Source of the DNA: Bacteroidota bacterium
GTDB taxonomy: Bacteria > Bacteroidota > Bacteroidia > B-17B0 > Aurantibacillaceae
Length of the DNA: 64,000 nucleotides
NCBI GenBank assembly: GCA_018267475.1
Contig: JAFDYI010000031.1
Coordinates: 50,261-114,260, forward strand
Direction of reading: 5' to 3'
A program made the translations under genes and the position numbers. Each line of letters begins with the position of its first letter. Within the stretch, counting starts at the first letter, position 1. The notes beneath the pieces are model-generated. The model saw only the letters and a list, made by a program, of their open reading frames with translations. It did not search any database and was not told the origin of the DNA. Positions 25,645 through 62,860 of the stretch are shown piece after piece.

Positions 25645-26442
25645 ATGCCTAACAAGTTGTGGTTTAGTTTATACACTAATAAAAAATACAGAGGCCATGA
25701 AAAACCCTATGTAGATGTAAGCGCTATTACCGGCATAAAAGAGTTAGAACAAAACGACCACCTCCTTCTTTCTGAATTAAACACCTATCTAAAAAAGCAA
25801 ACACTACATAGCCATTTCAACACCATGATGGTTGAAAAACCGGAAGTGTGGAAAGTGCAGGGCCTGCGTGGGTGGGGGCTTGAGCGCTATGAGAAGCAAA
25901 TATATTTTCCTGAAACCATGAGGCTTTTAAATGCTATTCCTAATGTAACATCCATCAGCATCAACCTAATAGAGCCGCACTCAAAAGTAAAGCCACACAG
26001 CGGCGATACGAATGCTATTATTCGTTGTCATTTAGGGCTAAAAATACCACCTGATTGCGGGCTTAGGGTAAATGAGGAAACAACCACTTGGCAAGAAGGA
26101 AAGGTTTTAGGATTTATAGATGCTTTTGAGCACGAAGCGTGGAACAATAGCGGCGAAACCCGTATCATTATACTTTTTGATATACTAAAACCCGAATACC
26201 TTCGTAAAAAACGTTGGATTTGCGCCACGGTAAGAACGGCATTTTTTATTCAACGTTTAGGTAATTTTTTTCCCGGTTTATACAAAATAGAGCGAGGCTT
26301 TTTAAAAATAGTAGCGTTACCCTTTATTTTATTTTTACTTATAAAAATACCTATACGCAACAAAGCCTATCAAATACGGCATAAAAAAAACCTAGTCAAA
26401 AGCCATAAGACTATTAACATCGGGCGTTTGAAAAAGAGATAA
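25645..26442 (+). CDS. Aspartyl/asparaginyl beta-hydroxylase-family Fe(II)/2OG dioxygenase (LpxO-like)
   Basis: 'PHSGD' (HxD-like), 'IRCHLGL', 'WQEGK', 'FDD-like FIDAFEHEAWN', 'RIIILFD'; C-terminal hydrophobic segment. Confidence 0.85.
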   Translation: MPNKLWFSLYTNKKYRGHEKPYVDVSAITGIKELEQNDHLLLSELNTYLKKQTLHSHFNTMMVEKPEVWKVQGLRGWGLERYEKQIYFPETMRLLNAIPNVTSISINLIEPHSKVKPHSGDTNAIIRCHLGLKIPPDCGLRVNEETTTWQEGKVLGFIDAFEHEAWNNSGETRIIILFDILKPEYLRKKRWICATVRTAFFIQRLGNFFPGLYKIERGFLKIVALPFILFLLIKIPIRNKAYQIRHKKNLVKSHKTINIGRLKKR

Positions 26443-26490
26443 AATATCTTTATTTTTAATCTATAAAGCACGTAAACTTGTATATTGTTT

Positions 26491-27054
26491 ATGAGTCGTA
26501 ACGAATTAATACAAGCCTGTTTAAGAAACGATAAAGAATCTCGGCACCGCTTATTAGAAGATCGTTATGGTTTTTTATTAGGTTTAAGCAGGCGTTATAC
26601 CAAAAACAATGCGCAAGCCGAAACCTTTTTACATGAGGCTTTAAAAAATTTATTTAAACACTTGCCCGAGTATCAAGATCATGAAGATTTAGAAGAATGG
26701 ATAAAAAAAGTGGTTATAAAAAGTTTAATTACACAATTAAAAAACATTAGAACAGATTACTACATTACCACCACCATTCGCATAGATGATAAAAAAGAAC
26801 CGTTGGATTTATTTCATCAAGCGGAAGAACAATGCCCTAATCAGTTAAAAGCAGAGGAATACGTTCGAGTGTTACAACGCATGCCGGCCTCTTTTAGGGC
26901 TATATACAATTTAATAGTAATAGATAAATTAAGTATGCAAGAGGCGGCTTCCTTTTTAGAAATAAGCGAAGATTCAGCAAAAAACAGCATAGAGCGCGCT
27001 CGATTTGAGTTTCTTAAAAATATAAAATTACACCAACAGGGCTATCATGGCTGA
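26491..27054 (+). CDS. ECF (sigma-70 family) RNA polymerase sigma factor, divergent
   Basis: ELIQACLRND, RRYTKNNAQAE, EEWIKKVVI, region 4 'RMPASFRAIYNLIVIDKLSMQEAASFLEISEDSAKNSIERAR'. Confidence 0.8.
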   Translation: MSRNELIQACLRNDKESRHRLLEDRYGFLLGLSRRYTKNNAQAETFLHEALKNLFKHLPEYQDHEDLEEWIKKVVIKSLITQLKNIRTDYYITTTIRIDDKKEPLDLFHQAEEQCPNQLKAEEYVRVLQRMPASFRAIYNLIVIDKLSMQEAASFLEISEDSAKNSIERARFEFLKNIKLHQQGYHG

Positions 27055-27721
27055 AAATAAATATCCTATAAACGAAGATGATTTGCGTGAAAAATTTTTA
27101 ACGTATAGCGTACCTTTTGATATTAGCCAGGTAACTCATTTAGAAAATGAAATTGATCAAATACGCACTCATGCCCCTATTGATTTACCCAGTAAAAAGA
27201 AACTGCTTCTTGTTTTTCTCACTCTTGTTGGCGCCTGTGTAGTGGGTGGTATTTTATTTTTAATGTTACAAAAAACACCTGAAGACACCCCTAAAAAAAA
27301 CGATACCTCGGTAAAAGTAACAGAAACAAAGCCTCCTATAGAAAACCTTACGCCACCTGCCCCTCAAACCAAAACCATCGTAGTTGATACTATAAAGCCC
27401 GAAGCAAAAAAAGCAGACAGCGCGACTATTCCTACCAAAATAATAGAAAAAAAGACAGTAGAAGGAAAAAGCAATAAAAAAGTAGAACAAAAAAACAATG
27501 TATTAAAAAACAACAATCGCGATACGACCGCTAAATCTAAACCGCTTTCCGACACTGCGAATAAAATAATAAAACAAAGTGCCGATTCAGCAAAAAACAC
27601 AGAGGCTACTCCTTCAAAAAAGAAAAAGAGAAAACGGAAAAACATATTAGACGCTACACAAGAAATTAGAGACGCAGCCCCTAACAGCGCCGATGATGAC
27701 GTAGTGGTACCCAACAATTAA
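27047..27721 (+). CDS. Single-TM protein, putative anti-sigma-like partner
   Basis: 8-nt overlap with the ECF gene; short acidic N-terminus, TM (LLLVFLTLVGACVVGGILFLML), K/T/D-rich low-complexity C-terminus. Confidence 0.55.
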   Translation: MAENKYPINEDDLREKFLTYSVPFDISQVTHLENEIDQIRTHAPIDLPSKKKLLLVFLTLVGACVVGGILFLMLQKTPEDTPKKNDTSVKVTETKPPIENLTPPAPQTKTIVVDTIKPEAKKADSATIPTKIIEKKTVEGKSNKKVEQKNNVLKNNNRDTTAKSKPLSDTANKIIKQSADSAKNTEATPSKKKKRKRKNILDATQEIRDAAPNSADDDVVVPNN

Positions 27722-27729
27722 ATTCTTTT

Positions 27730-29082
27730 TTAGAAAGCGTGCCCTAAGGAAAAGAAAAACTGATGATCTTCTTTTGAAAAGGCATAATCAAATCGCAAAA
27801 TGGTGTTTACATTCCACGCTATGCGCAAACCTCCTCCTTCAGAATACCGTATATTTTCTAAATGATTAAGCCTGCTAAAGCTGTTCCATACGCCTCCTAC
27901 ATCAAAAAAAGGAACTGCACTAAAGGCTAAATGTTGTTTTAAAATTTTACATTGAGCAAAACGCCAACGCAGTTCAAAGTTGGTAAACTCCATTACACGT
28001 GCTAAAAACCGACTTTGCTTGTACCCTCGCAAGGTAGTACCGCCTCCTAAACCTTCAATACTGCCTTCGCTCGTCCATTGATCTTGGTATTCATAAAAGG
28101 GTGCGTTGCCATCGGTATATCCTATTCCAATACGACCTGCAAAGGTGAGCCGCTTTATATACTTGGGCAATACGGGCACATAAGCATTAAAATGAAAAAA
28201 AGTTTTGTTACAGTTGTATTGCGAGCCCAGTGCAGTTAATGAAAGTTCGTTTGTTAGTTCTGAAAAAATGCCTTTACTCGGATTGGTTTCTAAGTCGCGT
28301 GTATCATATATAAAACCCGTTTGCACAAAAGTAACCACGTTTTGTCCGAAGCCCACTATTTTTTTTGCTACATAATCTTCGTGTAATAAAGAGCTATCGG
28401 GGTTAAGAGGGGTAGAAAAATCAACCCAGGCCGCCTCGTAAGCTAACAAGGCACGCAAACGCCCTTCATAAAAAGAACGCTCCAGTTTGATGTTCACAAC
28501 GGCTTCTTTTTTCAAATACGTATTGTAATCTTTTTTTCCGCCTACTAAATTTTTATCGTAATTGCTATACGTTGCGTCGGTTACTAAGCCGTTAGCCGGA
28601 TTGTTGTTTGGGTAATAGCTCAAGGGTTTTAAAGAATTTTCATCAATACCAAAATACAGCAAATTGGGGTTTACCTCGTAAGACACCTCACCGCCCAAGC
28701 GCCATTTTGTATTAAAAATATAGGGAATATCAAAACCTAATTTTATTTCTCGTTGCAGCTTTGTGGTGAGAAATACAGCTAGATTTATCTCGGCTCTGTA
28801 TGGCGTGTATTCAAAAAAGGGATCGCTTTTTTTTCCGTTAAAAAACAAAGAACCTTCTGCCCCTGCGCCAAATCCGTTTATTGGATCGGAGCTTAAATCC
28901 GGTACACCGGTTGCATACATACCTTCTTTTTTCTCAGCCAGTTCGTCATCGGGCAGGCGTTTTTCTTTAGCTATTGCAAAAGGCAATTTTTTTCCAGTAC
29001 TATCTGGTGTTGTTATTTGTGCTTGCATATAAGATAGGCACAGCACATACGCTATTGTTGTTTTAAAAAGTGTGTTTTTCAT
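27730..29082 (-). CDS. Omp85/BamA-superfamily outer-membrane barrel without POTRA domains (DUF5982-like)
   Basis: Signal peptide; 'GVPDLSSDPINGFGAG', 'YDTRDLETNPSKG', 'LRGYKQSRF' (VRGY-like lid motif), 'PFFDVGGVW', 'GGGLRIAW', 'LRFDYA', terminal ...FSLGHAF. Confidence 0.85.
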   Translation of the reverse strand: MKNTLFKTTIAYVLCLSYMQAQITTPDSTGKKLPFAIAKEKRLPDDELAEKKEGMYATGVPDLSSDPINGFGAGAEGSLFFNGKKSDPFFEYTPYRAEINLAVFLTTKLQREIKLGFDIPYIFNTKWRLGGEVSYEVNPNLLYFGIDENSLKPLSYYPNNNPANGLVTDATYSNYDKNLVGGKKDYNTYLKKEAVVNIKLERSFYEGRLRALLAYEAAWVDFSTPLNPDSSLLHEDYVAKKIVGFGQNVVTFVQTGFIYDTRDLETNPSKGIFSELTNELSLTALGSQYNCNKTFFHFNAYVPVLPKYIKRLTFAGRIGIGYTDGNAPFYEYQDQWTSEGSIEGLGGGTTLRGYKQSRFLARVMEFTNFELRWRFAQCKILKQHLAFSAVPFFDVGGVWNSFSRLNHLENIRYSEGGGLRIAWNVNTILRFDYAFSKEDHQFFFSLGHAF

Positions 29083-29106
29083 AAATTAAATGTGAATCAT
29101 AAAATA

Positions 29107-29146
29107 TACTCGCAGCCCGTCTTGTCTATTAGACGGGCTACGAGTA
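29107..29146 (-). terminator. Long intergenic stem-loop between the PepSY-like and Omp85 genes
   Basis: TACTCG-C-AGCCCGTCT / loop 8 nt / AGACGGGCT-A-CGAGTA (15 bp plus one mismatch); only a weak U tract (TATATTTT) follows on the minus strand. Confidence 0.55.
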
Positions 29147-29165
29147 CGTGAAGTTTTAAAAGAGC

Positions 29166-29606
29166 TTATTTCCCAATTTCTCTTTTCAAAAGTTTACCAT
29201 CGGTAGAAAACTGTGCTTCTATTTTTTGCTTGTTTGATTTTATTTCAAACTCATACAGTTCTACGTGGTTAGGCCTGCTTACTTTTTCAGCCTCATCTAT
29301 TTTGGCTGTTCCAAACTCTTTTTCAAGCGCTTGTTTTACGGCAGCAGGTACCTCGTTCATACTTATTTCCTCCTCGGTTTCAAGCCACTCAGCATCGGCA
29401 CTGTATTTAGCCGATAGCTCTTTTTTATCTTGATGAAAATTTACTTCGTAATTTTTTTCATCTAATTCCCACTGCACTTTTTCTGCTTTTGAGAATTGTT
29501 TTTTAAAGTTAGTGTTGATGGCCGCAGGAACTTTTTCCGCGGTTATTTTTTGTGCAGACGCATAACTTACACAGGCTACGCAAAGCACGGTTGCTAATGC
29601 TTTCAT
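29166..29606 (-). CDS. Periplasmic PepSY-like (DUF2874/BLIP-like) protein
   Basis: Signal peptide; two repeats 'VPAAINTNFKKQF...WE...YEVNF...AKYSADAEWLETE' and 'VPAAVKQALEKEF...YEFEI...AQFSTDGKLL'. Confidence 0.85.
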   Translation of the reverse strand: MKALATVLCVACVSYASAQKITAEKVPAAINTNFKKQFSKAEKVQWELDEKNYEVNFHQDKKELSAKYSADAEWLETEEEISMNEVPAAVKQALEKEFGTAKIDEAEKVSRPNHVELYEFEIKSNKQKIEAQFSTDGKLLKREIGK

Positions 29607-29618
29607 GATTATTTTTTT

Positions 29619-29716
29619 TAAATGTTATTAAATTAATTCTGTTTTTTCTAAAAAACAAGAAAACAATCTGTTGCTTTAAGCAATCAGACTATAAATACGG
29701 GAACAAATAACATTTA
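29619..29716 (-). promoter_or_regulatory. Structured intergenic leader: 11-bp closing stem plus two hairpins
   Basis: mRNA arm UAAAUGUUAUU (29716..29706, includes the upstream stop) is the exact complement of AAUAACAUUUA (29629..29619); inner hairpins at 29690..29665 and 29661..29637. Confidence 0.6.
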
Positions 29717-30097
29717 TGCTTTAGGAGGGTGAAACACCGAAGTAGGATATACCCAATAATCTTTTAACGTATAGATAAAAGTATGTTTTATTGGCTCTAC
29801 CGGGTGTACATCAAATTGGGCTACTTGGTATATAGGCATAGCTAATATCAAGTGGGTAGAGGCTGCGTAAAAAGGTACGGGCTTGTTATCTTCTTTTTCA
29901 GCATCATCTGTTTCTAAAAAGCCTACTTCAAAAAATTGCTCTTCTAAAAACTCAAAAATATCCGTGTTGTGGTTGGTATTACAAAAGTCATTGTAAAGCT
30001 TTGGTATTTGTTCTATATAGGCAAAATGCCCACGAGGTAAAAAGACACTTCCCACGGTGTAGTACACTAAAAGCGCTATGGCAATACTTTTTTTCAC
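29714..30097 (-). CDS. Small exported/membrane-anchored protein with C-terminal FHPP motif (putative regulatory leader)
   Basis: GTG start, N-terminal hydrophobic segment, acidic middle, ends ...SVFHPPKA*; own -7 box. Confidence 0.7.
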   Translation of the reverse strand: MKKSIAIALLVYYTVGSVFLPRGHFAYIEQIPKLYNDFCNTNHNTDIFEFLEEQFFEVGFLETDDAEKEDNKPVPFYAASTHLILAMPIYQVAQFDVHPVEPIKHTFIYTLKDYWVYPTSVFHPPKA

Positions 30098-30110
30098 TAA
30101 ATAATCTATG

Positions 30111-30118
30111 CAAATATA
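30111..30118 (-). promoter_or_regulatory. Bacteroidota sigmaA -7 box (TATATTTG) for the FHPP-PepSY-Omp85 unit
   Basis: TAnnTTTG 13 nt upstream of the GTG start. Confidence 0.6.
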
Positions 30119-30183: not shown

Positions 30184-31635
30184 CTACTGTTTTATCCACT
30201 TTTTCACGGTGTTCTGTATTTTAATAAAATACAAACCGTTGCTTAAATTATGAATGGGTATGGCAACCACTTCTTTACCCTTTATAAAAAAGGGTTCTTT
30301 CAACACATCGTTGCCCAGTACGTCGTATATTTTTATTTCGCCCTGCATATTATCAAGTGTATTTATTTGTAAGATAGATGAGGCCGGATTGGGGTACAAA
30401 CTGAAGCTGTTTTCTGCCGAGGTGGCGTTTTCTATTCCAGTGGTGCCCACGTTTACCCACAACGCGTATGGCCCATTTTTGCAAGGAGGAATGTTTTCTG
30501 TAATAACCACATTACCCGATGTGTTCCCGAAATTTACTACTATGCTATTCGTTCCTTGTCCGCTGACAATAGTTGCGCCGCTTGGTACCGACCAGGTATA
30601 AGTTGTGCCCGTTGTAGCGCTTACCGAATACGTTACATTCGTTTGATTGGTTACTACATTAGTAAGGCCATTTATAGTAAGAGTATTGTTATTTAAAATT
30701 CCGAAAAAATAAGCCGCCCAAAAAGTAGAAGAGAAATACACATTATAGGCATAAGTGCCTATTTGCCCACATTGCTGGTAACAGGTTCCTGTATCCAGAG
30801 CTAGGGCATGCCCTAAGCCCATAAGAGTGTAGGTTTCTACCACCTCGCTGATGCTGTTGTTATAGGTGTTTTGCATTACATAAATACCGCCATTAAAGGT
30901 AGTAGTGCTTGTGGTCGGCGTTTGGCTGGCGCCTTGTACGTTTGTCCATTGTTTCATAATCTCTATTTCGTTTTGTGGGTTTACCACGGGATCTGCACTT
31001 CCTTGAAACACAACTACCTTAGGGTAAGCACCTGCATAAGTGGGGTAAGCCGCCCGTACTGAATCGCCCCATTGCTGGGGGGTGATGGTAGTGGTATAGC
31101 CGTACAAGGCAGCTGCACCTGCACGGTAAGGCGCTCCTGACATGGGGGCGCCAGCCTTAAACACATCGGGGTAACAAGCCATCATCACGTTAGTCATGCA
31201 AGCTCCCGCGCTTAGGCCTGTAACAAAAATTTGGGTGCTATCAATAAGGTAGTGCCCCTTCATATAATCTACCATTTGTTTAATAGAAGAAGCCTCGCCT
31301 TGATTTCTGTTGATATCCCCACTTACAAACCAATTAAAGCAATTGTTAGAATTATTCGCTGCGTTTTGTTCGGGATATACTACGCAAAAGTGATGCCTGT
31401 CGGCCATAGTATTCCAACCGCTTTGCACGGCTACTACGCTGGCGGTTTGTGTACAGCCGTGCATGACCACTACTAAAGGAGCCTTTGATGTAATGCCTGC
31501 AGGCACATAGCTGTACATATTTAAGTTACCCGGGTTGCTTCCAAAAGAAGTTACTGCATTCCAACCGGTTTGCGCGTTTGTGACACGAAGCACAAAACAC
31601 AAAAAAAACACATAGCTAAATTTAAGAGCGGTCAT
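30184..31635 (-). CDS. Secreted PHB-depolymerase/LpqC-family esterase with PKD-like domain and T9SS CTD
   Basis: GSNPGNLNMY, VVMHGCTQ (oxyanion), YPEQ, CFNWF, GLSAG (nucleophile), QGSADPVV (Asp), GLGH (His); 'TYTWSVPSGATI' PKD-like; CTD 'LYPNPAS...IYDVLG...LSNGLYFIKI'. Confidence 0.9.
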   Translation of the reverse strand: MTALKFSYVFFLCFVLRVTNAQTGWNAVTSFGSNPGNLNMYSYVPAGITSKAPLVVVMHGCTQTASVVAVQSGWNTMADRHHFCVVYPEQNAANNSNNCFNWFVSGDINRNQGEASSIKQMVDYMKGHYLIDSTQIFVTGLSAGACMTNVMMACYPDVFKAGAPMSGAPYRAGAAALYGYTTTITPQQWGDSVRAAYPTYAGAYPKVVVFQGSADPVVNPQNEIEIMKQWTNVQGASQTPTTSTTTFNGGIYVMQNTYNNSISEVVETYTLMGLGHALALDTGTCYQQCGQIGTYAYNVYFSSTFWAAYFFGILNNNTLTINGLTNVVTNQTNVTYSVSATTGTTYTWSVPSGATIVSGQGTNSIVVNFGNTSGNVVITENIPPCKNGPYALWVNVGTTGIENATSAENSFSLYPNPASSILQINTLDNMQGEIKIYDVLGNDVLKEPFFIKGKEVVAIPIHNLSNGLYFIKIQNTVKKWIKQ

Positions 31636-31671
31636 GGTGGTTATTAAAATTTATTTTTTTTGAAAGTAGTT

Positions 31672-31699
31672 CAAAGATATAAAAAAAAACATACATTTG
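31672..31699. promoter_or_regulatory. Back-to-back divergent sigmaA -7 boxes
   Basis: TATCTTTG on minus (31672..31679, esterase) and TACATTTG on plus (31692..31699, PAS-PP2C). Confidence 0.55.
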
Positions 31700-31709
31700 C
31701 AGCGGAAAT

Positions 31710-31787
31710 ATGTTTTTCAGTACACACATACTTTTTTCTTCTTGGCATCGAATGCCTTGTATTATGCCTATGCAACGCGGTTGCTAA
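31710..31787 (+). other. Possible upstream ORF / leader peptide (25 aa, MFFSTHILFSSWHRMPCIMPMQRGC*)
   Basis: Open frame from ATG 31710 to TAA 31787 inside the 5' leader of the PAS-PP2C gene; short hairpins and a U-rich tract follow. Confidence 0.3.
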
Positions 31788-31833
31788 GAGCCATTTTACT
31801 CTTTTTTTTCATTTATTTTTTTATTCAAACAGT

Positions 31834-32979
31834 ATGAATTTTATTGGAGAAGCTATATTACAACATTTAAATACCCTTATCGTAGTCATCAGCCCGCAGG
31901 GCGAAATAAACTACGTAAGTCCCTCGGTACAGCGCCTATTGGGTTACCATGCAAGCCAACTTTTGGGTAATGGCTGGTGGGAACTGCCGCGTGAATCGGC
32001 AGCAGAAGGTTTAGCTATAAAAAATCAAGTTTTAGAAGCTACAAAAAAATCAAAAGGACACATACCCATATTTGAACGCTATGTAACTACCGCACAAGGA
32101 GCAAAAAAGTATATTGTGTGGAACAGTCATCTAACCGAAAACGGAAACCTTGTTAGCATTGGTTATGATATAAGCGACCGCAAACAAGCCGAGCAGCTAT
32201 TAAATGAAAAAGTAAAAGAGCTTCAGAAAAAAAATGCAGAGATGAGTGAAAGCATCGCTTATGCCAAACGCATACAGCAAAGCATTTTAGTTCATCCGGA
32301 AGGGCTAAACAAAGAAGTGGCCGACTCTTTTATATTATATCGCCCAAAAGATGTGGTAAGTGGCGATTTGTATTGGTATTACAAAAAAGGCAACAAACTG
32401 TATGTGGCCGCTGTAGATTGTACCGGGCATGGGGTTCCAGGCGCTCTCATGTCTGTAATGGCCTATGGTTTGTTGCGCAATAACATTGCAAAAAGAAACC
32501 TCAACAACCCGGCTCAAATACTATATGCTTTAGATGAAGAGTTGCAAGCCGAACTGCTTACGCAGGGCACTGCCGACGGAATGGATATTGCCCTTATAGA
32601 AATAGATTTTGAAACCCAAAAAGTACAATACGCAGGCGCTTTTAGGCCTTTAATTTTAATACGCAATGGACAACTTATAGAATTTAAAGCCAGCAAATTT
32701 CCTATTGGCTTATACGGAGGTGTTGAAAAACAATTTGACTTACACGAGTTTAATTGGTTGCCGGGCGATGCTTTGTATCTTTTTTCTGATGGGTATGCCG
32801 ACCAATTTGGAGGCGAGCGTAACAAAAAATTTAATCGGAAAAATTTTTATGAAACCTTGCTAAGCATACAAGATATGACTATGGAAGAGCAAGCTTCTTT
32901 TTTGGAATACACACACAACAACTGGAAACAAAACGAGACACAAACCGACGATATACTGGTTATGGGTATTAAACTTTAA
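31834..32979 (+). CDS. PAS domain + SpoIIE/RsbU-type PP2C phosphatase
   Basis: PAS 'GEINYVSPSVQRLLGY'; coiled linker; KDVVSGDLYW, AAVDCTGHGVPGA, DGMDIAL, LFSDGYADQFGG, QTDDILVMG; start ATG 31834. Confidence 0.9.
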   Translation: MNFIGEAILQHLNTLIVVISPQGEINYVSPSVQRLLGYHASQLLGNGWWELPRESAAEGLAIKNQVLEATKKSKGHIPIFERYVTTAQGAKKYIVWNSHLTENGNLVSIGYDISDRKQAEQLLNEKVKELQKKNAEMSESIAYAKRIQQSILVHPEGLNKEVADSFILYRPKDVVSGDLYWYYKKGNKLYVAAVDCTGHGVPGALMSVMAYGLLRNNIAKRNLNNPAQILYALDEELQAELLTQGTADGMDIALIEIDFETQKVQYAGAFRPLILIRNGQLIEFKASKFPIGLYGGVEKQFDLHEFNWLPGDALYLFSDGYADQFGGERNKKFNRKNFYETLLSIQDMTMEEQASFLEYTHNNWKQNETQTDDILVMGIKL

Positions 32980-59843: not shown

Positions 59844-60761
59844 ATGTGGAGCCGTGTGATAAAAACAACAACACCCATAGATGTTATTACTATACTATAT
59901 ATGGGATTATCAGCAGGATATATTCTTGCAGGATACAATAAAATAGAAAATATAGAGTCCCTCTTTTTGATGCGAGTTGGCGTTTTAGTTTTCATGTTTT
60001 TTTTGTTGTATGCTGAAAGCAAATTAAAATTTACAAAAATAAAATGGTTCGTTAGCTTTCTTAGAAATGTGTACCCTTTTTTCTTCCTTAATTATTTTTA
60101 TACCGAAACTCATTACACTAAAAACAACCTTTTTCCACAGGACATAGACGCCGTTTTTGCTTCTGCCGAACAAAGTATATGGGGATTTCAACCTAGCTTA
60201 CAATTTTCGGAACATGTAAATAACCCTTTGTTTAGAGAATTGATGTATATGGGATATTTTTCTTTTTATTTAATGATACCCACACTTTGTATTGCTTTCT
60301 ATTTAAAGAATAAAAACACCGCAAAACAGCCTCTTTTTATTATGGCTTGCAGTTTTTACCTGTTTTATTGTTTATATCATTTTATACCGGTGTTAGGGCC
60401 TCAATATTATTTTAACAGCTACGCTTACAATATGGAGCCTCGTTATTTTTTTGGAAGTATTATGCATTACTTACAAATACATGTAGAGTACCCTACCGGC
60501 GCTTTCCCTAGTTCTCACGTAGGCATGGCTTTTGTTTTTTGTTATGTAACCTACCATTGGCACAAAACGTTGTTTAAAATTGTTTTACCTCTTGCTCTAT
60601 GTATTTGCTTTGCTACCGTTTATATAAAAGAGCATTATTTAATAGATGTGCTGGCCGGTTTGGCAACAGCGCCTGTTTTTATATACCTAAGCAAAAAAAT
60701 ACATACTCTTATAGAGGCTTGTTTACTTTCCTTTAAAAAAGAAGAATCTTGTTTAAGCTAG
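59844..60761 (+). CDS. PAP2_3 / AUR1 (inositol phosphorylceramide synthase-like) membrane enzyme
   Basis: Multiple TMs; 'IPVLGPQY', 'GAFPSSHVG' and 'HYLIDVLAG' (AUR1 D3/D4-like catalytic His-His-Asp); lacks the KxxxxxxRP motif of phosphatase-type PAP2. Confidence 0.75.
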   Translation: MWSRVIKTTTPIDVITILYMGLSAGYILAGYNKIENIESLFLMRVGVLVFMFFLLYAESKLKFTKIKWFVSFLRNVYPFFFLNYFYTETHYTKNNLFPQDIDAVFASAEQSIWGFQPSLQFSEHVNNPLFRELMYMGYFSFYLMIPTLCIAFYLKNKNTAKQPLFIMACSFYLFYCLYHFIPVLGPQYYFNSYAYNMEPRYFFGSIMHYLQIHVEYPTGAFPSSHVGMAFVFCYVTYHWHKTLFKIVLPLALCICFATVYIKEHYLIDVLAGLATAPVFIYLSKKIHTLIEACLLSFKKEESCLS

Positions 60762-62860
60762 GCCACCCTTCCCCAATTGGTATTGTTTTTATTTTCTCTA
60801 AGTAGTTGTGCTACTAAAATTTTATGCTCTTCGTTAGATAGGTTAGGATCTTTTTCTAATACCATACCGGCGGCTTGCCTGGCTGTTTGTAGTATTTGTT
60901 GGTCTTTAGCTAAATTAGATATTCGCAAATTAAGAGCTCCACTTTGTTGTGTGCCTTCAATATCTCCCGGCCCTCGAAGTTGCAAATCTACTTCGGCTAC
61001 TTCAAACCCATCATTGGTGCGGCACATGGTTTCCATACGGGTTCTGGCATCTTGCGATAATTTATAGGAGGTCATTAAAATGCAATAACTTTGCTCGGCG
61101 CCGCGCCCTACACGCCCTCGCAGCTGGTGTAGTTGCGATAAGCCAAAACGCTCGGCGCTTTCAATAACCATAACACTGGCATTGGGTACGTTTACCCCTA
61201 CCTCTATTACCGTGGTGGCAATCATAATTTGGGTTTTGCAGTTTACAAAACGCTGCATCTCCGTATCTTTATCTTCGGATTTCATTTTTCCATGCACAAT
61301 GCTTATTTGGTATTTAGGCAAAGGAAATTCTTGAGATAGGGCGTCGTATCCTTCCATTAAGTTTTTTAAATCCAATTTTTCTGACTCTTCAATAAGTGGA
61401 TATACCACATAAACTTGCCTACCTAAGGCAATTTGCTCCTTCATAAAGCCAAATAAGCGCAAGCGTTTGCTATCGGTGTAATGCAGGGTTTGTATTGCTT
61501 TTCTATTAGGAGGTAGTTCATCAATTACAGAAGTATCAAGGTCGCCATACAAGGTCATAGCTAAGGTACGCGGAATGGGGGTAGCGCTCATTACCAATAC
61601 GTGTGGCGGCTTGCTATTTTTTTTGTGAAGGGCGGCGCGTTGGGCTACTCCAAAACGATGTTGCTCATCAATAACTACAAAGCCTAAATTTTTAAATTGC
61701 ACGGTTTCTTCAAGCAAGGCATGTGTGCCCACCACAAGTTGAGTTGTATTATTGGCTATATTTTGTAAAATGCTTTTGCGTTCCTTGCCTTTTATAGAGC
61801 CCGTAAGCAGGCTGCAAGATATATGCAAGGGCGCTACCAGCCGACTAATCGTTTCAAAATGCTGCTGCGCTAAAATTTCGGTAGGAGCCATGATGCAAGC
61901 TTGAAATCCATTATCTAAAGCCATTAACATACACATTAACGATACAATGGTTTTACCACTACCAACATCGCCTTGCAAAAGACGGTTCATCTGTTTACCG
62001 CTGCGTACATCGCTACGAATTTCTCGTATCACGCGTTTTTGCGCATGGGTTAGCTCAAAAGGGAGATGCTCTTTAAAAAAAGTATTGAAGTAAGGCGACA
62101 ATGTTTCAAATACAAAACTTTGTGTGCTTTCGCGTCTTATATGTTTGTTTTTCAGTAATTTTAGCTGAATGTAAAAAAGTTCTTCAAACTTTAACCGAAA
62201 CTCTGCCTGCCGTAACTCTTCCATATTTTCAGGAAAATGAATGTGCCGGTACGCCTGCTCTCTATCCATCAAACGATATTGATTAAGTATGTATAAAGGC
62301 AAGGTTTCTTCTATTTGACCGGTTATTTGTAACAATAAAGCTTGTTGTAGTTTTAATAAGCCTTTAGTATCTAAGCCTTTGCTTTTTAATTTTTCGGTGC
62401 TGGGATATACAGGCTCTAAACCCGATTGTTGCCTAATGCTTTCGTTATTGGCAGGCTCTATATCAGGATGTACAAAGTTGTATTTGTTTCGGTACTCGGT
62501 AGGCTTTCCTAACACCACATATTCTGTATTGGAATTAAACTTTCCTTCTAACCATTTTACTCCACGAAACCAAATCAATTCTACTATACCCGTATCGTCT
62601 TTTAAATAAGCAATAAATCTTTTATTATGAGCGGCGCCTTGTGTTTCTGTTTTTATGATTTTTCCTTTCAGTTGCACATAAGGCAAATCAATATGAATAT
62701 CTTTTATCAGACAAAACTGACTTCTATCTACATAACGAAAAGGATACCAAACAATTAAATCGTAATAAGTAAAAATCTGTAATTCTTTTTTTAGTACATC
62801 TCCACGTTGTGGCCCTATGCCCTTCAAAAACTCAATGGGAGTATCTAAAAATGAACTCAT
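60758..62860 (-). CDS. recG: ATP-dependent DNA helicase RecG
   Basis: LKGIGP, RLKFEELF, ELTHAQKRV, MNRLLQGDVGSGKT, IDEQHRFGV, MSATPIPRTL, QLHQLRGRVGRG, LRGPG. Confidence 0.98.
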   Translation of the reverse strand: MSSFLDTPIEFLKGIGPQRGDVLKKELQIFTYYDLIVWYPFRYVDRSQFCLIKDIHIDLPYVQLKGKIIKTETQGAAHNKRFIAYLKDDTGIVELIWFRGVKWLEGKFNSNTEYVVLGKPTEYRNKYNFVHPDIEPANNESIRQQSGLEPVYPSTEKLKSKGLDTKGLLKLQQALLLQITGQIEETLPLYILNQYRLMDREQAYRHIHFPENMEELRQAEFRLKFEELFYIQLKLLKNKHIRRESTQSFVFETLSPYFNTFFKEHLPFELTHAQKRVIREIRSDVRSGKQMNRLLQGDVGSGKTIVSLMCMLMALDNGFQACIMAPTEILAQQHFETISRLVAPLHISCSLLTGSIKGKERKSILQNIANNTTQLVVGTHALLEETVQFKNLGFVVIDEQHRFGVAQRAALHKKNSKPPHVLVMSATPIPRTLAMTLYGDLDTSVIDELPPNRKAIQTLHYTDSKRLRLFGFMKEQIALGRQVYVVYPLIEESEKLDLKNLMEGYDALSQEFPLPKYQISIVHGKMKSEDKDTEMQRFVNCKTQIMIATTVIEVGVNVPNASVMVIESAERFGLSQLHQLRGRVGRGAEQSYCILMTSYKLSQDARTRMETMCRTNDGFEVAEVDLQLRGPGDIEGTQQSGALNLRISNLAKDQQILQTARQAAGMVLEKDPNLSNEEHKILVAQLLRENKNNTNWGRVA

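Follow-up and report, generated by a model that had tools for sequence, protein, structure and literature searches.

We describe here a small unannotated gene, which we call X, and the RNA element that follows it, in a 64,000-nucleotide (nt) stretch of the genome of a Bacteroidota bacterium (contig JAFDYI010000031.1). This whole stretch is referred to as the window, and all positions are given in its coordinates. Taking the locus together with its relatives, we see roughly even chances that X is the operon-heading, cis-acting translational leader of a system of the CutF/CruR type, in which a predicted ribosome stall at a C-terminal F[H/R]PP motif opens a long-range RNA stem (hereafter the clamp) that masks the start of the next gene, encoding a PepSY-like protein. 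Bacteroidota generally lack Shine-Dalgarno pairing, and the A-rich region just upstream of the start codon is therefore thought to need to be unstructured. From footprint and toeprint geometry it is known that a ribosome holding the two Pro codons in its P and A sites occupies the mRNA as far as about +15. According to the proposed mechanism, the ribosome translating X would pause in this position, and its footprint would extend over at least the first half of the clamp's 5' arm. The clamp would then open, and the PepSY-like gene, probably also the gene after it, would become translatable; a ribosome passing without a pause would terminate, and the clamp would re-form. How long the pause lasts would depend on the fate of the already exported N-terminal domain, that is, on ligand binding or on pulling from the translocon.

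Gene X is an open reading frame (ORF) of 127 amino acids with a GTG start on the minus strand (29714..30097), and its product belongs, as a divergent and His-poor member, to an unannotated family of Bacteroidota proteins of about 130 amino acids. The protein ends in SVFHPPKA*, encoded by CAC CCT CCT AAA GCA TAA from the His onwards, with the stop codon at 29716..29714 in the reading of the ORF. The codons for F122-H123-P124-P125 (29723..29734, minus strand; PP at 29728..29723) correspond to a conserved [F/L/Y][H/R/Q/K]PP motif and make up the proposed stall site. The N-terminus consists of MKK and a 17-residue hydrophobic helix (residues 2-20, 30038..30094, minus strand), which is a candidate export signal or signal-anchor; an AXA cleavage site is not obvious, so that a signal-anchor is possible, and the AlphaFold model contains a helix at residues 2-19 with a predicted local distance difference test score (pLDDT) above 90. 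The middle region is acidic, and the protein has one Cys only (C39). An exact TAnnTTTG box of the Bacteroidota -7 promoter type (TATATTTG, 30111..30118, minus strand) is located 21 nt 5' of the GTG. The first-pass annotation, which was made from the letters of the DNA, had described a 127-residue gene ending in FHPPKA with Pro-Pro three codons before the stop, a -7 box of its own, a hydrophobic N-terminal segment and an acidic middle, and all of these were recovered. No Pfam or NCBIfam family matched the X protein of the window, and no Rfam 15 covariance model matched between 29400 and 30200 at E <= 1.

The stop codon of X forms the beginning of the clamp's 5' arm. This arm, TAAATGTTATT (29706..29716, minus strand; +12..+22 from the first Pro codon), is perfectly complementary to AATAACATTTA (29619..29629, minus strand), which is located 13-23 nt upstream of the PepSY-like ATG (29606) in the A-rich initiation region. 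In the minimum-energy fold the two arms form an 11-bp outer stem that encloses two hairpins. The first of these (29663..29692, minus strand; -11.5 kcal/mol) is terminator-like and is followed by GTTTTCTTGTTTTTT, with a U-rich run at 29664..29650, while the second (29637..29661, minus strand) pairs the U-run with an A-run. Both the 11-nt complementarity and the two enclosed hairpins, the first with its terminator-like tail, had been pointed out in the first-pass annotation and hold in the fold. The folding energy of the window element was -26.6 kcal/mol, compared to -18.0 +/- 3.4 kcal/mol for shuffled sequences (z = -2.5; 2 of 200 shuffles were as stable), and the duplex between the stop and start regions reached -8.9 kcal/mol, compared to -4.8 kcal/mol for shuffles (p about 0.02). 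Such values are only suggestive in AT-rich DNA, and the case therefore rests on related loci; as far as sequence comparison goes, those with a like architecture put the window clamp beyond chance.

Seven close homologues of X are 47-65% identical to it, and when they are aligned with the window sequence the whole length is conserved and HPPK is invariant. A profile search of 1.8 billion cluster representatives gave 98 clusters (50% identity), nearly all of 128-136 amino acids, and a second search gave at least 175 clusters at 90% identity, all named 'hypothetical protein' and without a Pfam domain. The taxa in the second search were Flavobacteriaceae, Saprospiraceae, Chitinophagales and Sediminibacterium, and family members come from freshwater, soil, marine and sludge samples. 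One member (P0155) belongs to the cultured species Aequorivita antarctica. Among 77 family members no Pfam model, DUF2946 included, matched at E <= 1. The window subfamily and the mainstream of the family are homologous over their full length (99% probability, E = 9.5e-18, hhalign profile-profile comparison). The His-rich relatives mentioned in the first-pass annotation turned out to be this mainstream, and they precede PepSY-like genes and then TonB-receptor-like or efflux (OEP) genes.

The family consensus starts with MKK, about 17 hydrophobic residues and LPxG[DN]F, the K/R-rich start being conserved. It continues with the strongly conserved segment MYxHCKATEDKDMTPFDFITDHLxNID..FDKHDNGDEQKPHxPxQFHH, then with some 40 poorly conserved residues, and closes, near the end, with SxYxSx[IV]F[H/R]PP[I/K]. 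In the mainstream alignment the invariant columns fall into two groups, at positions 16-77 and 125-128, and among 77 diverse aligned members the only invariant columns are PP and F50. Of 105 proteins, 98 carry the motif [FLYV][HRQK(S)]PP followed by 2-15 further residues, mostly 2-8; in 47 of them this tail is exactly 2 residues long. As regards the conservation of the FHPP ending, which the first-pass annotation had put forward as a check, PP is invariant across the 77 members and C-terminal in 98 of 105 proteins. Most of 154 proteins have a KP[H]-to-PP distance of 52-55 residues (mode 53); the full range is 51-59, and the window protein has 51. Read at the level of sequence, conservation in the family follows a sensor-linker-stall pattern, with a linker that is constant in length and poor in sequence conservation. 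The conserved residues of the mainstream include H37, C38, H55, H66 and H75 in addition to many Asp and Glu residues; in the window protein the Cys alone is kept, and the His positions are taken by D, Q and V. The AlphaFold model made with the family alignment has a mean pLDDT of 83 and helices at residues 2-19, 25-42 and 47-55, the remainder being non-regular. A sequence-profile search of PDB gave nothing meaningful, and Foldseek gave zero matches for the AlphaFold model.

The 77-sequence alignment was too diverse for a search of loci, and a 25-sequence mainstream alignment was used instead. In total, 98 related loci were fetched, with genes called crudely. The cluster that includes the PepSY-like protein of the window provided the next same-strand gene in 71 of about 85 loci, with a spacer that was usually 60-100 nt. 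An exact -7 box was present upstream of X in 26 of 59 distinct loci, at a distance of mostly 21-25 nt from the start codon, and none was found in the 59 spacers between X and the PepSY-like gene (4534 nt scanned). X is therefore taken to head the operon. In the window, the second gene of this operon (29166..29606, minus strand), 107 nt downstream of X on the same strand, encodes a PepSY-like protein of 146 amino acids with a signal peptide (Pfam PF11396, E = 2.4e-13). The third gene (27730..29082, minus strand), which is specific to the window subfamily, encodes an outer-membrane protein of the Omp85 family with DUF5982 (Pfam DUF5982, 5.4e-29; Pfam Omp85, 3.8e-25; NCBIfam NF047779, 9.8e-127). 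These matches and the comparison of loci agree with the earlier proposal that X controls a PepSY-like/Omp85 operon, as regards its layout and the position of X at its head. The third gene varies across the family: a DUF347 membrane protein in 17 loci, a TonB-receptor-like barrel (Plug, CarboxypepD_reg) in 12, Omp85/DUF5982 in 6 (the window subfamily) and an OEP/TolC-like protein in 4.

The clamp recurs in many of these loci. Pairing between the stop-codon region and the stretch 1-25 nt upstream of the PepSY-like ATG is seen in about 60% of distinct loci, with differing arm sequences, examples being TAATCGTTT/AAACGATTA, TAATTGTTT/AAACAATTA (with G.U variants), TTTGCTTGA/TCAAGCAAA and TTGCTTAATT/AATTAAGCAA. 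At least nine long-range pairs between stop and start were present in the minimum-energy fold of 35 of 55 distinct loci. Duplexes of cognate arms were the more stable, at -8.2 kcal/mol compared to -5.2 kcal/mol for non-cognate arms (p = 5.6e-6). When tight windows were used and spacers were at least 55 nt, 21 of 48 family loci reached p <= 0.05 against shuffles, compared to 0 of 34 other same-strand gene pairs taken as controls from those contigs (Fisher p = 1.2e-6). Two close relatives of the window locus with long spacers, L006 and L007, have retained the architecture, with arms of different sequence. A MAFFT alignment over all arm classes was too poor for column-wise covariation, and a covariance model was instead built from one class; this model located the equivalent site in many other loci. 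In the resulting alignment 89.5% of the cells were paired, compared to 35-54% when the partner was slid, 11 of 12 pairs had changed on both sides and zero shuffles reached the observed covariation score; however, it should be underlined that this alignment is fitted to the model and hence biased towards structure. The loci are also interrelated, but they include at least 10 distinct arm sequences. The covariance model did not find the clamp site of the window itself, where the spacer is longer. Its sole match in the window, a weak one (60672..60762, minus strand; E = 0.52), is judged spurious, being located at the 3' end of a 700-residue helicase-like ORF with no X-family gene nearby; from its sequence we take this ORF to be recG.

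These comparisons bear on the simplest account of the locus, according to which nothing here is regulatory, X being an ordinary small membrane-protein gene followed by a terminator, with an 11-nt complementarity that arose by chance in AT-rich DNA. The modest statistics of the window (p about 0.02, z about -2.5) would agree with this, as would the lack of the stem in the closest short-spacer relatives and the varying gene after X in the subfamily (PepSY-like, cold-shock-domain (CSD) gene or Omp85). On the other side stand the excess of pairing found across the family relative to shuffled sequences, to non-cognate arms and to control gene pairs, the covariation, the total lack of promoter boxes in the spacers and the maintenance of the architecture with different arms in L006 and L007. 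On the sequences compared, the chance reading is already disfavoured, and we regard it as very improbable.

The position of the 5' arm links the clamp to the Pro-Pro motif. Relative to the first Pro codon, averaged pairing probabilities locate the 5' arm at +9..+20, both in loci with 2-residue tails (n = 19) and in those with 3-residue tails (n = 13). Since the offset is alike in the two tail classes, the distance of the arm is fixed to PP and not to the stop codon. When the footprint of a ribosome at PP was imposed on clamp loci, the unpaired probability of the start region rose from 0.37 to 0.49-0.52, compared to 0.55 in clamp-free loci, and, as given with the 3' arm of the window, the mean unpaired probability of the start region rose from 0.38 to 0.50. 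A footprint placed 12 codons further upstream had no effect on the start region in clamp loci. The first-pass annotation had proposed that the 5' arm is placed where a ribosome at HPP would open the downstream start, and the PP-anchored offset supports this placement in silico.

Several observations weigh against a regulated stall. The alternative to be considered first is plain translational coupling, in which case X would be a stable, membrane-anchored periplasmic partner of the PepSY-like protein, F[H/R]PP would have a structural or binding role, and the clamp would only tie translation of the PepSY-like gene to finished X, fixing the ratio of the two products without any regulated stall. 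The N-terminal 55-80 residues are the best-conserved part of the family and are confidently modelled by AlphaFold, as expected of a stable functional protein; X accordingly goes beyond a bare leader peptide. The pairing of X with a PepSY-like gene is strict. A footprint at the stop codon was as effective in freeing the start region as a footprint at PP (0.53 versus 0.49-0.52), and since normal termination also melts the 5' arm, simple coupling explains the clamp almost as well. In the window, the footprint 12 codons upstream also raised the accessibility of the start region (0.58), which means that the local prediction is noisier than the family average.

About 40% of the distinct loci lack the clamp, and it is absent from the closest PepSY-linked relatives of the window locus, which have spacers of 38-57 nt (L001, L005 and L011-L013); these short-spacer loci without a clamp still retain the PP motif. 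The expectation that homologues would share the complementary arms was consequently borne out in about 60% of distinct loci and by covariation, and failed in the closest short-spacer relatives. The first control test, made with wide windows (stop -12..+15 versus ATG -30..+3, spacers of 45-140 nt), showed no significant difference between family and control gene pairs (p = 0.12), a comparison that was blurred because ordinary hairpins in short spacers straddle both windows. A bare Xaa-Pro-Pro motif is, moreover, usually a weak stall that is relieved by elongation factor P. As regards expression, there were no RNA runs for the organism of the window, which was found only in DNA runs from activated-sludge and wastewater metagenomes. 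For one related freshwater locus (L042, 4500..4962), low-depth metatranscriptome contigs from four runs covered the PepSY-like ORF only. No contig extended over X, the spacer or the TonB-receptor-like gene, although contigs cannot show the absence of a transcript, and three contigs ended exactly at the PepSY-like stop. This coverage may reflect RNA processing, differential stability, separate transcription or an unseen promoter.

Coupling has difficulties of its own. The 5' arm is fixed to PP, not to the stop, across both tail classes, and the linker is constant in length and poorly conserved, which is unexpected for a folded mature domain. The residue before PP varies between H, R, Q and K, the R/H/Q alternatives being as in RAPP-like arrest motifs (PMC10987492), and no fold relative of the AlphaFold model was found in the PDB. 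Of these points, only the PP-anchored arm and the constant-length, non-conserved linker stand against coupling, and we judge coupling without a regulated stall to be possible but rather unlikely.

The first hairpin of the window raises the question of a CruR-like control of transcription, in which stall or release would decide on termination in the spacer, through a hairpin with a U-run or through Rho. The window hairpin of -11.5 kcal/mol with its U-rich run resembles a weak terminator, CruR itself provides a precedent (PMC9426467), and the uneven coverage by RNA contigs along the L042 operon would be compatible with such a control. However, a strict terminator scan does not call the window hairpin, and a terminator-like hairpin with a U-run is present in only 6 of 55 family spacers. 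The window hairpin begins 36 nt downstream of the first Pro codon (41 nt as drawn in the first-pass annotation), which is beyond the reach of a ribosome held at PP. The earlier proposal that the stall prevents termination is therefore not supported and must be considered unlikely. Furthermore, no alternative anti-terminator pairing was found, and short A/U-rich spacers would be poor loading sites for Rho. For these reasons transcriptional control appears improbable.

The predicted stall at F[H/R]PP, together with the clamp, leaves the nature of the signal to be considered. KP[H] precedes PP by about 53 residues, and KP[H] would therefore be leaving the translocon at the pause. The His/Asp/Cys-rich domain of the mainstream proteins and their TonB-receptor-like or efflux neighbours suggest a metal signal. 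In the window subfamily, where most His residues are lost and the operon is linked to Omp85, the signal is probably different or absent, to judge from these sequence features. In its widest form, our proposal is that X represents an unannotated, Bacteroidota-wide family of exported sensor-leaders in which arrest at F[H/R]PP, together with a clamp set 9 nt beyond the stall site, turns on PepSY-like proteins and transporters of the outer membrane, and in which the His-poor Omp85 branch reports the state of envelope or outer-membrane assembly rather than metal. We put this forward tentatively, as something that may well turn out otherwise. If the leader mechanism as such is correct, the CutF/CruR principle, in which a nascent exported chain senses the periplasm and the stalled ribosome remodels the mRNA, would extend to a second major phylum by way of a family unrelated in sequence, and it would be adapted to translation without Shine-Dalgarno sequences by masking of the A-rich start region. 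It would also give a first functional handle on the common Bacteroidota clusters of PepSY-like, DUF347 and TonB-receptor-like genes. A clear geometric prediction that can be tested is the fixed +9 offset between clamp and Pro codons, and even if coupling is all there is, the X family and its RNA element are unannotated and widespread.

A number of other structures and genes were seen at these loci. In L001, L005 and L011-L013, which form the HPPKNKLV* subfamily, a small A-U hairpin has a 5' arm starting at +8/+9 from the first Pro codon, as in the clamp; the stop codon is located in its loop, and the start region is not contacted. L016 and L018 display a different spacer design, with long near-perfect hairpins (about -27 kcal/mol) that begin 2-5 nt past the X stop and end short of the start region. 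In family loci the Ile/Phe codons at -7..-3 before PP pair with AUGAAAA of the PepSY-like start (+1..+5) with a probability of 0.3-0.44, leaving the Pro codons in an internal loop, which may be a mere effect of composition. Between the PepSY-like stop and the Omp85 start of the window there is a strong hairpin of 17 bp with 9 G-C pairs (29106..29147, minus strand); its role within the operon could be that of a terminator, of an attenuator or of an element for RNA stability. A scan of the window and all fetched loci for other ORFs with an X-type ending gave one chance ORF only. DUF6660, considered for a similar C-terminus, gave no Pfam match and is named in no paper found, and was dropped.

With regard to gene order, the window arrangement (X, PepSY-like, Omp85) is shared by L005, L011, L012 and L013, and orders within the window subfamily are less fixed, comprising X-PepSY-Omp85, X-Omp85, X-PepSY-CSD and X-CSD. 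A CSD gene often follows X or the PepSY-like gene in this subfamily (L001, L002-L004, L008-L010, L014 and L015), and in L015 the PepSY-like gene has apparently been lost, with the CSD gene in its place ahead of Omp85. The neighbours of the operon in the window include a sigma factor of the extracytoplasmic function type, followed by a 224-residue Lys/Thr-rich membrane protein without a Pfam match, possibly an anti-sigma factor. Other neighbours are an esterase of the polyhydroxybutyrate-depolymerase type with a type IX secretion system sorting domain, a PAS-SpoIIE phosphatase and an Asp/Asn beta-hydroxylase. These neighbouring genes are located at 26485..27721 (plus strand), 30184..31635 (minus strand), 31660..32979 (plus strand) and 25645..26442 (plus strand).

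Among the closest known systems is CutF of Rhodobacter capsulatus, a small Sec-exported protein in which binding of copper prolongs a stall at a C-terminal Pro-rich motif, the stall melting a stem-loop that covers the next gene's ribosome-binding site (PMC9973294; bioRxiv 10.1101/2025.02.05.636593). In a survey of CutF-like proteins, 19% of 5,334 proteins came from Bacteroidota (Ozturk et al., mBio 2023, PMC9973294). X shares with CutF a length below 150 amino acids (127); its N-terminal hydrophobic helix may correspond to the export signal of CutF, and in the mainstream family the exported part contains a candidate ligand-binding motif. P124-P125 are located two residues before the end and thus within the last 15, X is the first gene of its operon with a short spacer and a same-strand neighbour, and the mRNA is predicted in silico to form a structure that masks the next start and could be melted by a ribosome at the Pro motif. 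In size, C-terminal PP and same-strand neighbour, the X family agrees with the operational definition of CutF-like proteins. On the other hand, no sequence relationship was detected, the X family having been compared with CutF-like proteins by description. The motif is F[H/R]PP in X but a Pro-rich PPP stretch in CutF, and what is masked in X is an A-rich region that has no Shine-Dalgarno sequence. The structure also differs, being in X a long-range stem with the stop codon in its 5' arm and one or two enclosed hairpins, and the next gene is PepSY-like in X loci but encodes a multicopper oxidase in the case of CutF. The X protein of the window, finally, has no Cys or His cluster.

CruR (DUF2946) of Bordetella pertussis has a C-terminal RAPP with a CXXC 45 residues upstream and acts through Rho-dependent termination (Roy et al., mBio 2022, PMC9426467), and the operons that its homologues head encode TonB-dependent transporters and PepSY_TM proteins (PMC9426467). 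Both X and CruR are small first genes with a predicted (in X, candidate) export signal and a conserved stall-type Pro-Pro 2-3 residues from the C-terminus, both display a conserved spacing between a sensing motif and PP (KP[H]-to-PP being the analogue in X), and both head operons with TonB-dependent transporter and PepSY-type genes. However, neither the window protein nor the 77 family members match Pfam DUF2946. The window X lacks CXXC, and FHPP/FRPP has no Ala between the basic residue and PP, in contrast to RAPP. CruR works by Rho-dependent termination over a 162-nt spacer, whereas the conserved element of the X family would be a translational clamp, and the partner of X is PepSY_like (PF11396) where that of CruR is PepSY_TM.

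Small ORFs with RAPP/RGPP are enriched upstream of TonB-receptor and PepSY genes (PMC12992588), and R/H/Q alternatives occur in screened RAPP-like arrest motifs (PMC10987492). Such arrest peptides are small secreted or membrane proteins whose C-terminal stall motif controls the next gene, and by analogy X appears to have the same build. The likeness extends to PepSY-domain and TonB-receptor genes among the enriched downstream classes and to R, H or Q at the first motif position; the X motif differs in lacking Ala or Gly between R/H and PP. The arrest-peptide candidates proposed so far from Bacteroidota end in NSP or NAP at the stop, ahead of secA or secDF (PMC10987492). In these the motif is located directly at the stop, whereas in X a tail follows PP. 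The genes downstream of X encode PepSY_like and Omp85 proteins and not sec or yidC products, which sets X apart from the peptides that monitor Sec or YidC (SecM, MifM, VemP, ApdA/P and the NSP-/NAP-stop peptides). The likeness to SecM, MifM, ApdA and CruR leaders drawn in the first-pass annotation holds best for the metal-sensing CutF/CruR class, and the Sec-monitoring SecM and MifM fit less well.

Translational coupling by an inhibitory long-range mRNA structure is, in turn, classical in RNA phages and ribosomal-protein operons. There, as would be the case here, the structure hiding the downstream start is opened when ribosomes translate the 3' end of the upstream cistron. X differs in that the arm is placed relative to a conserved Pro-Pro and in that the upstream product is built like an exported sensor. 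The kind of mechanism is thus known, whereas the X family, its motif, the geometry of the clamp and the setting without Shine-Dalgarno sequences are, as far as we found and with the nearest systems compared by description, undescribed.

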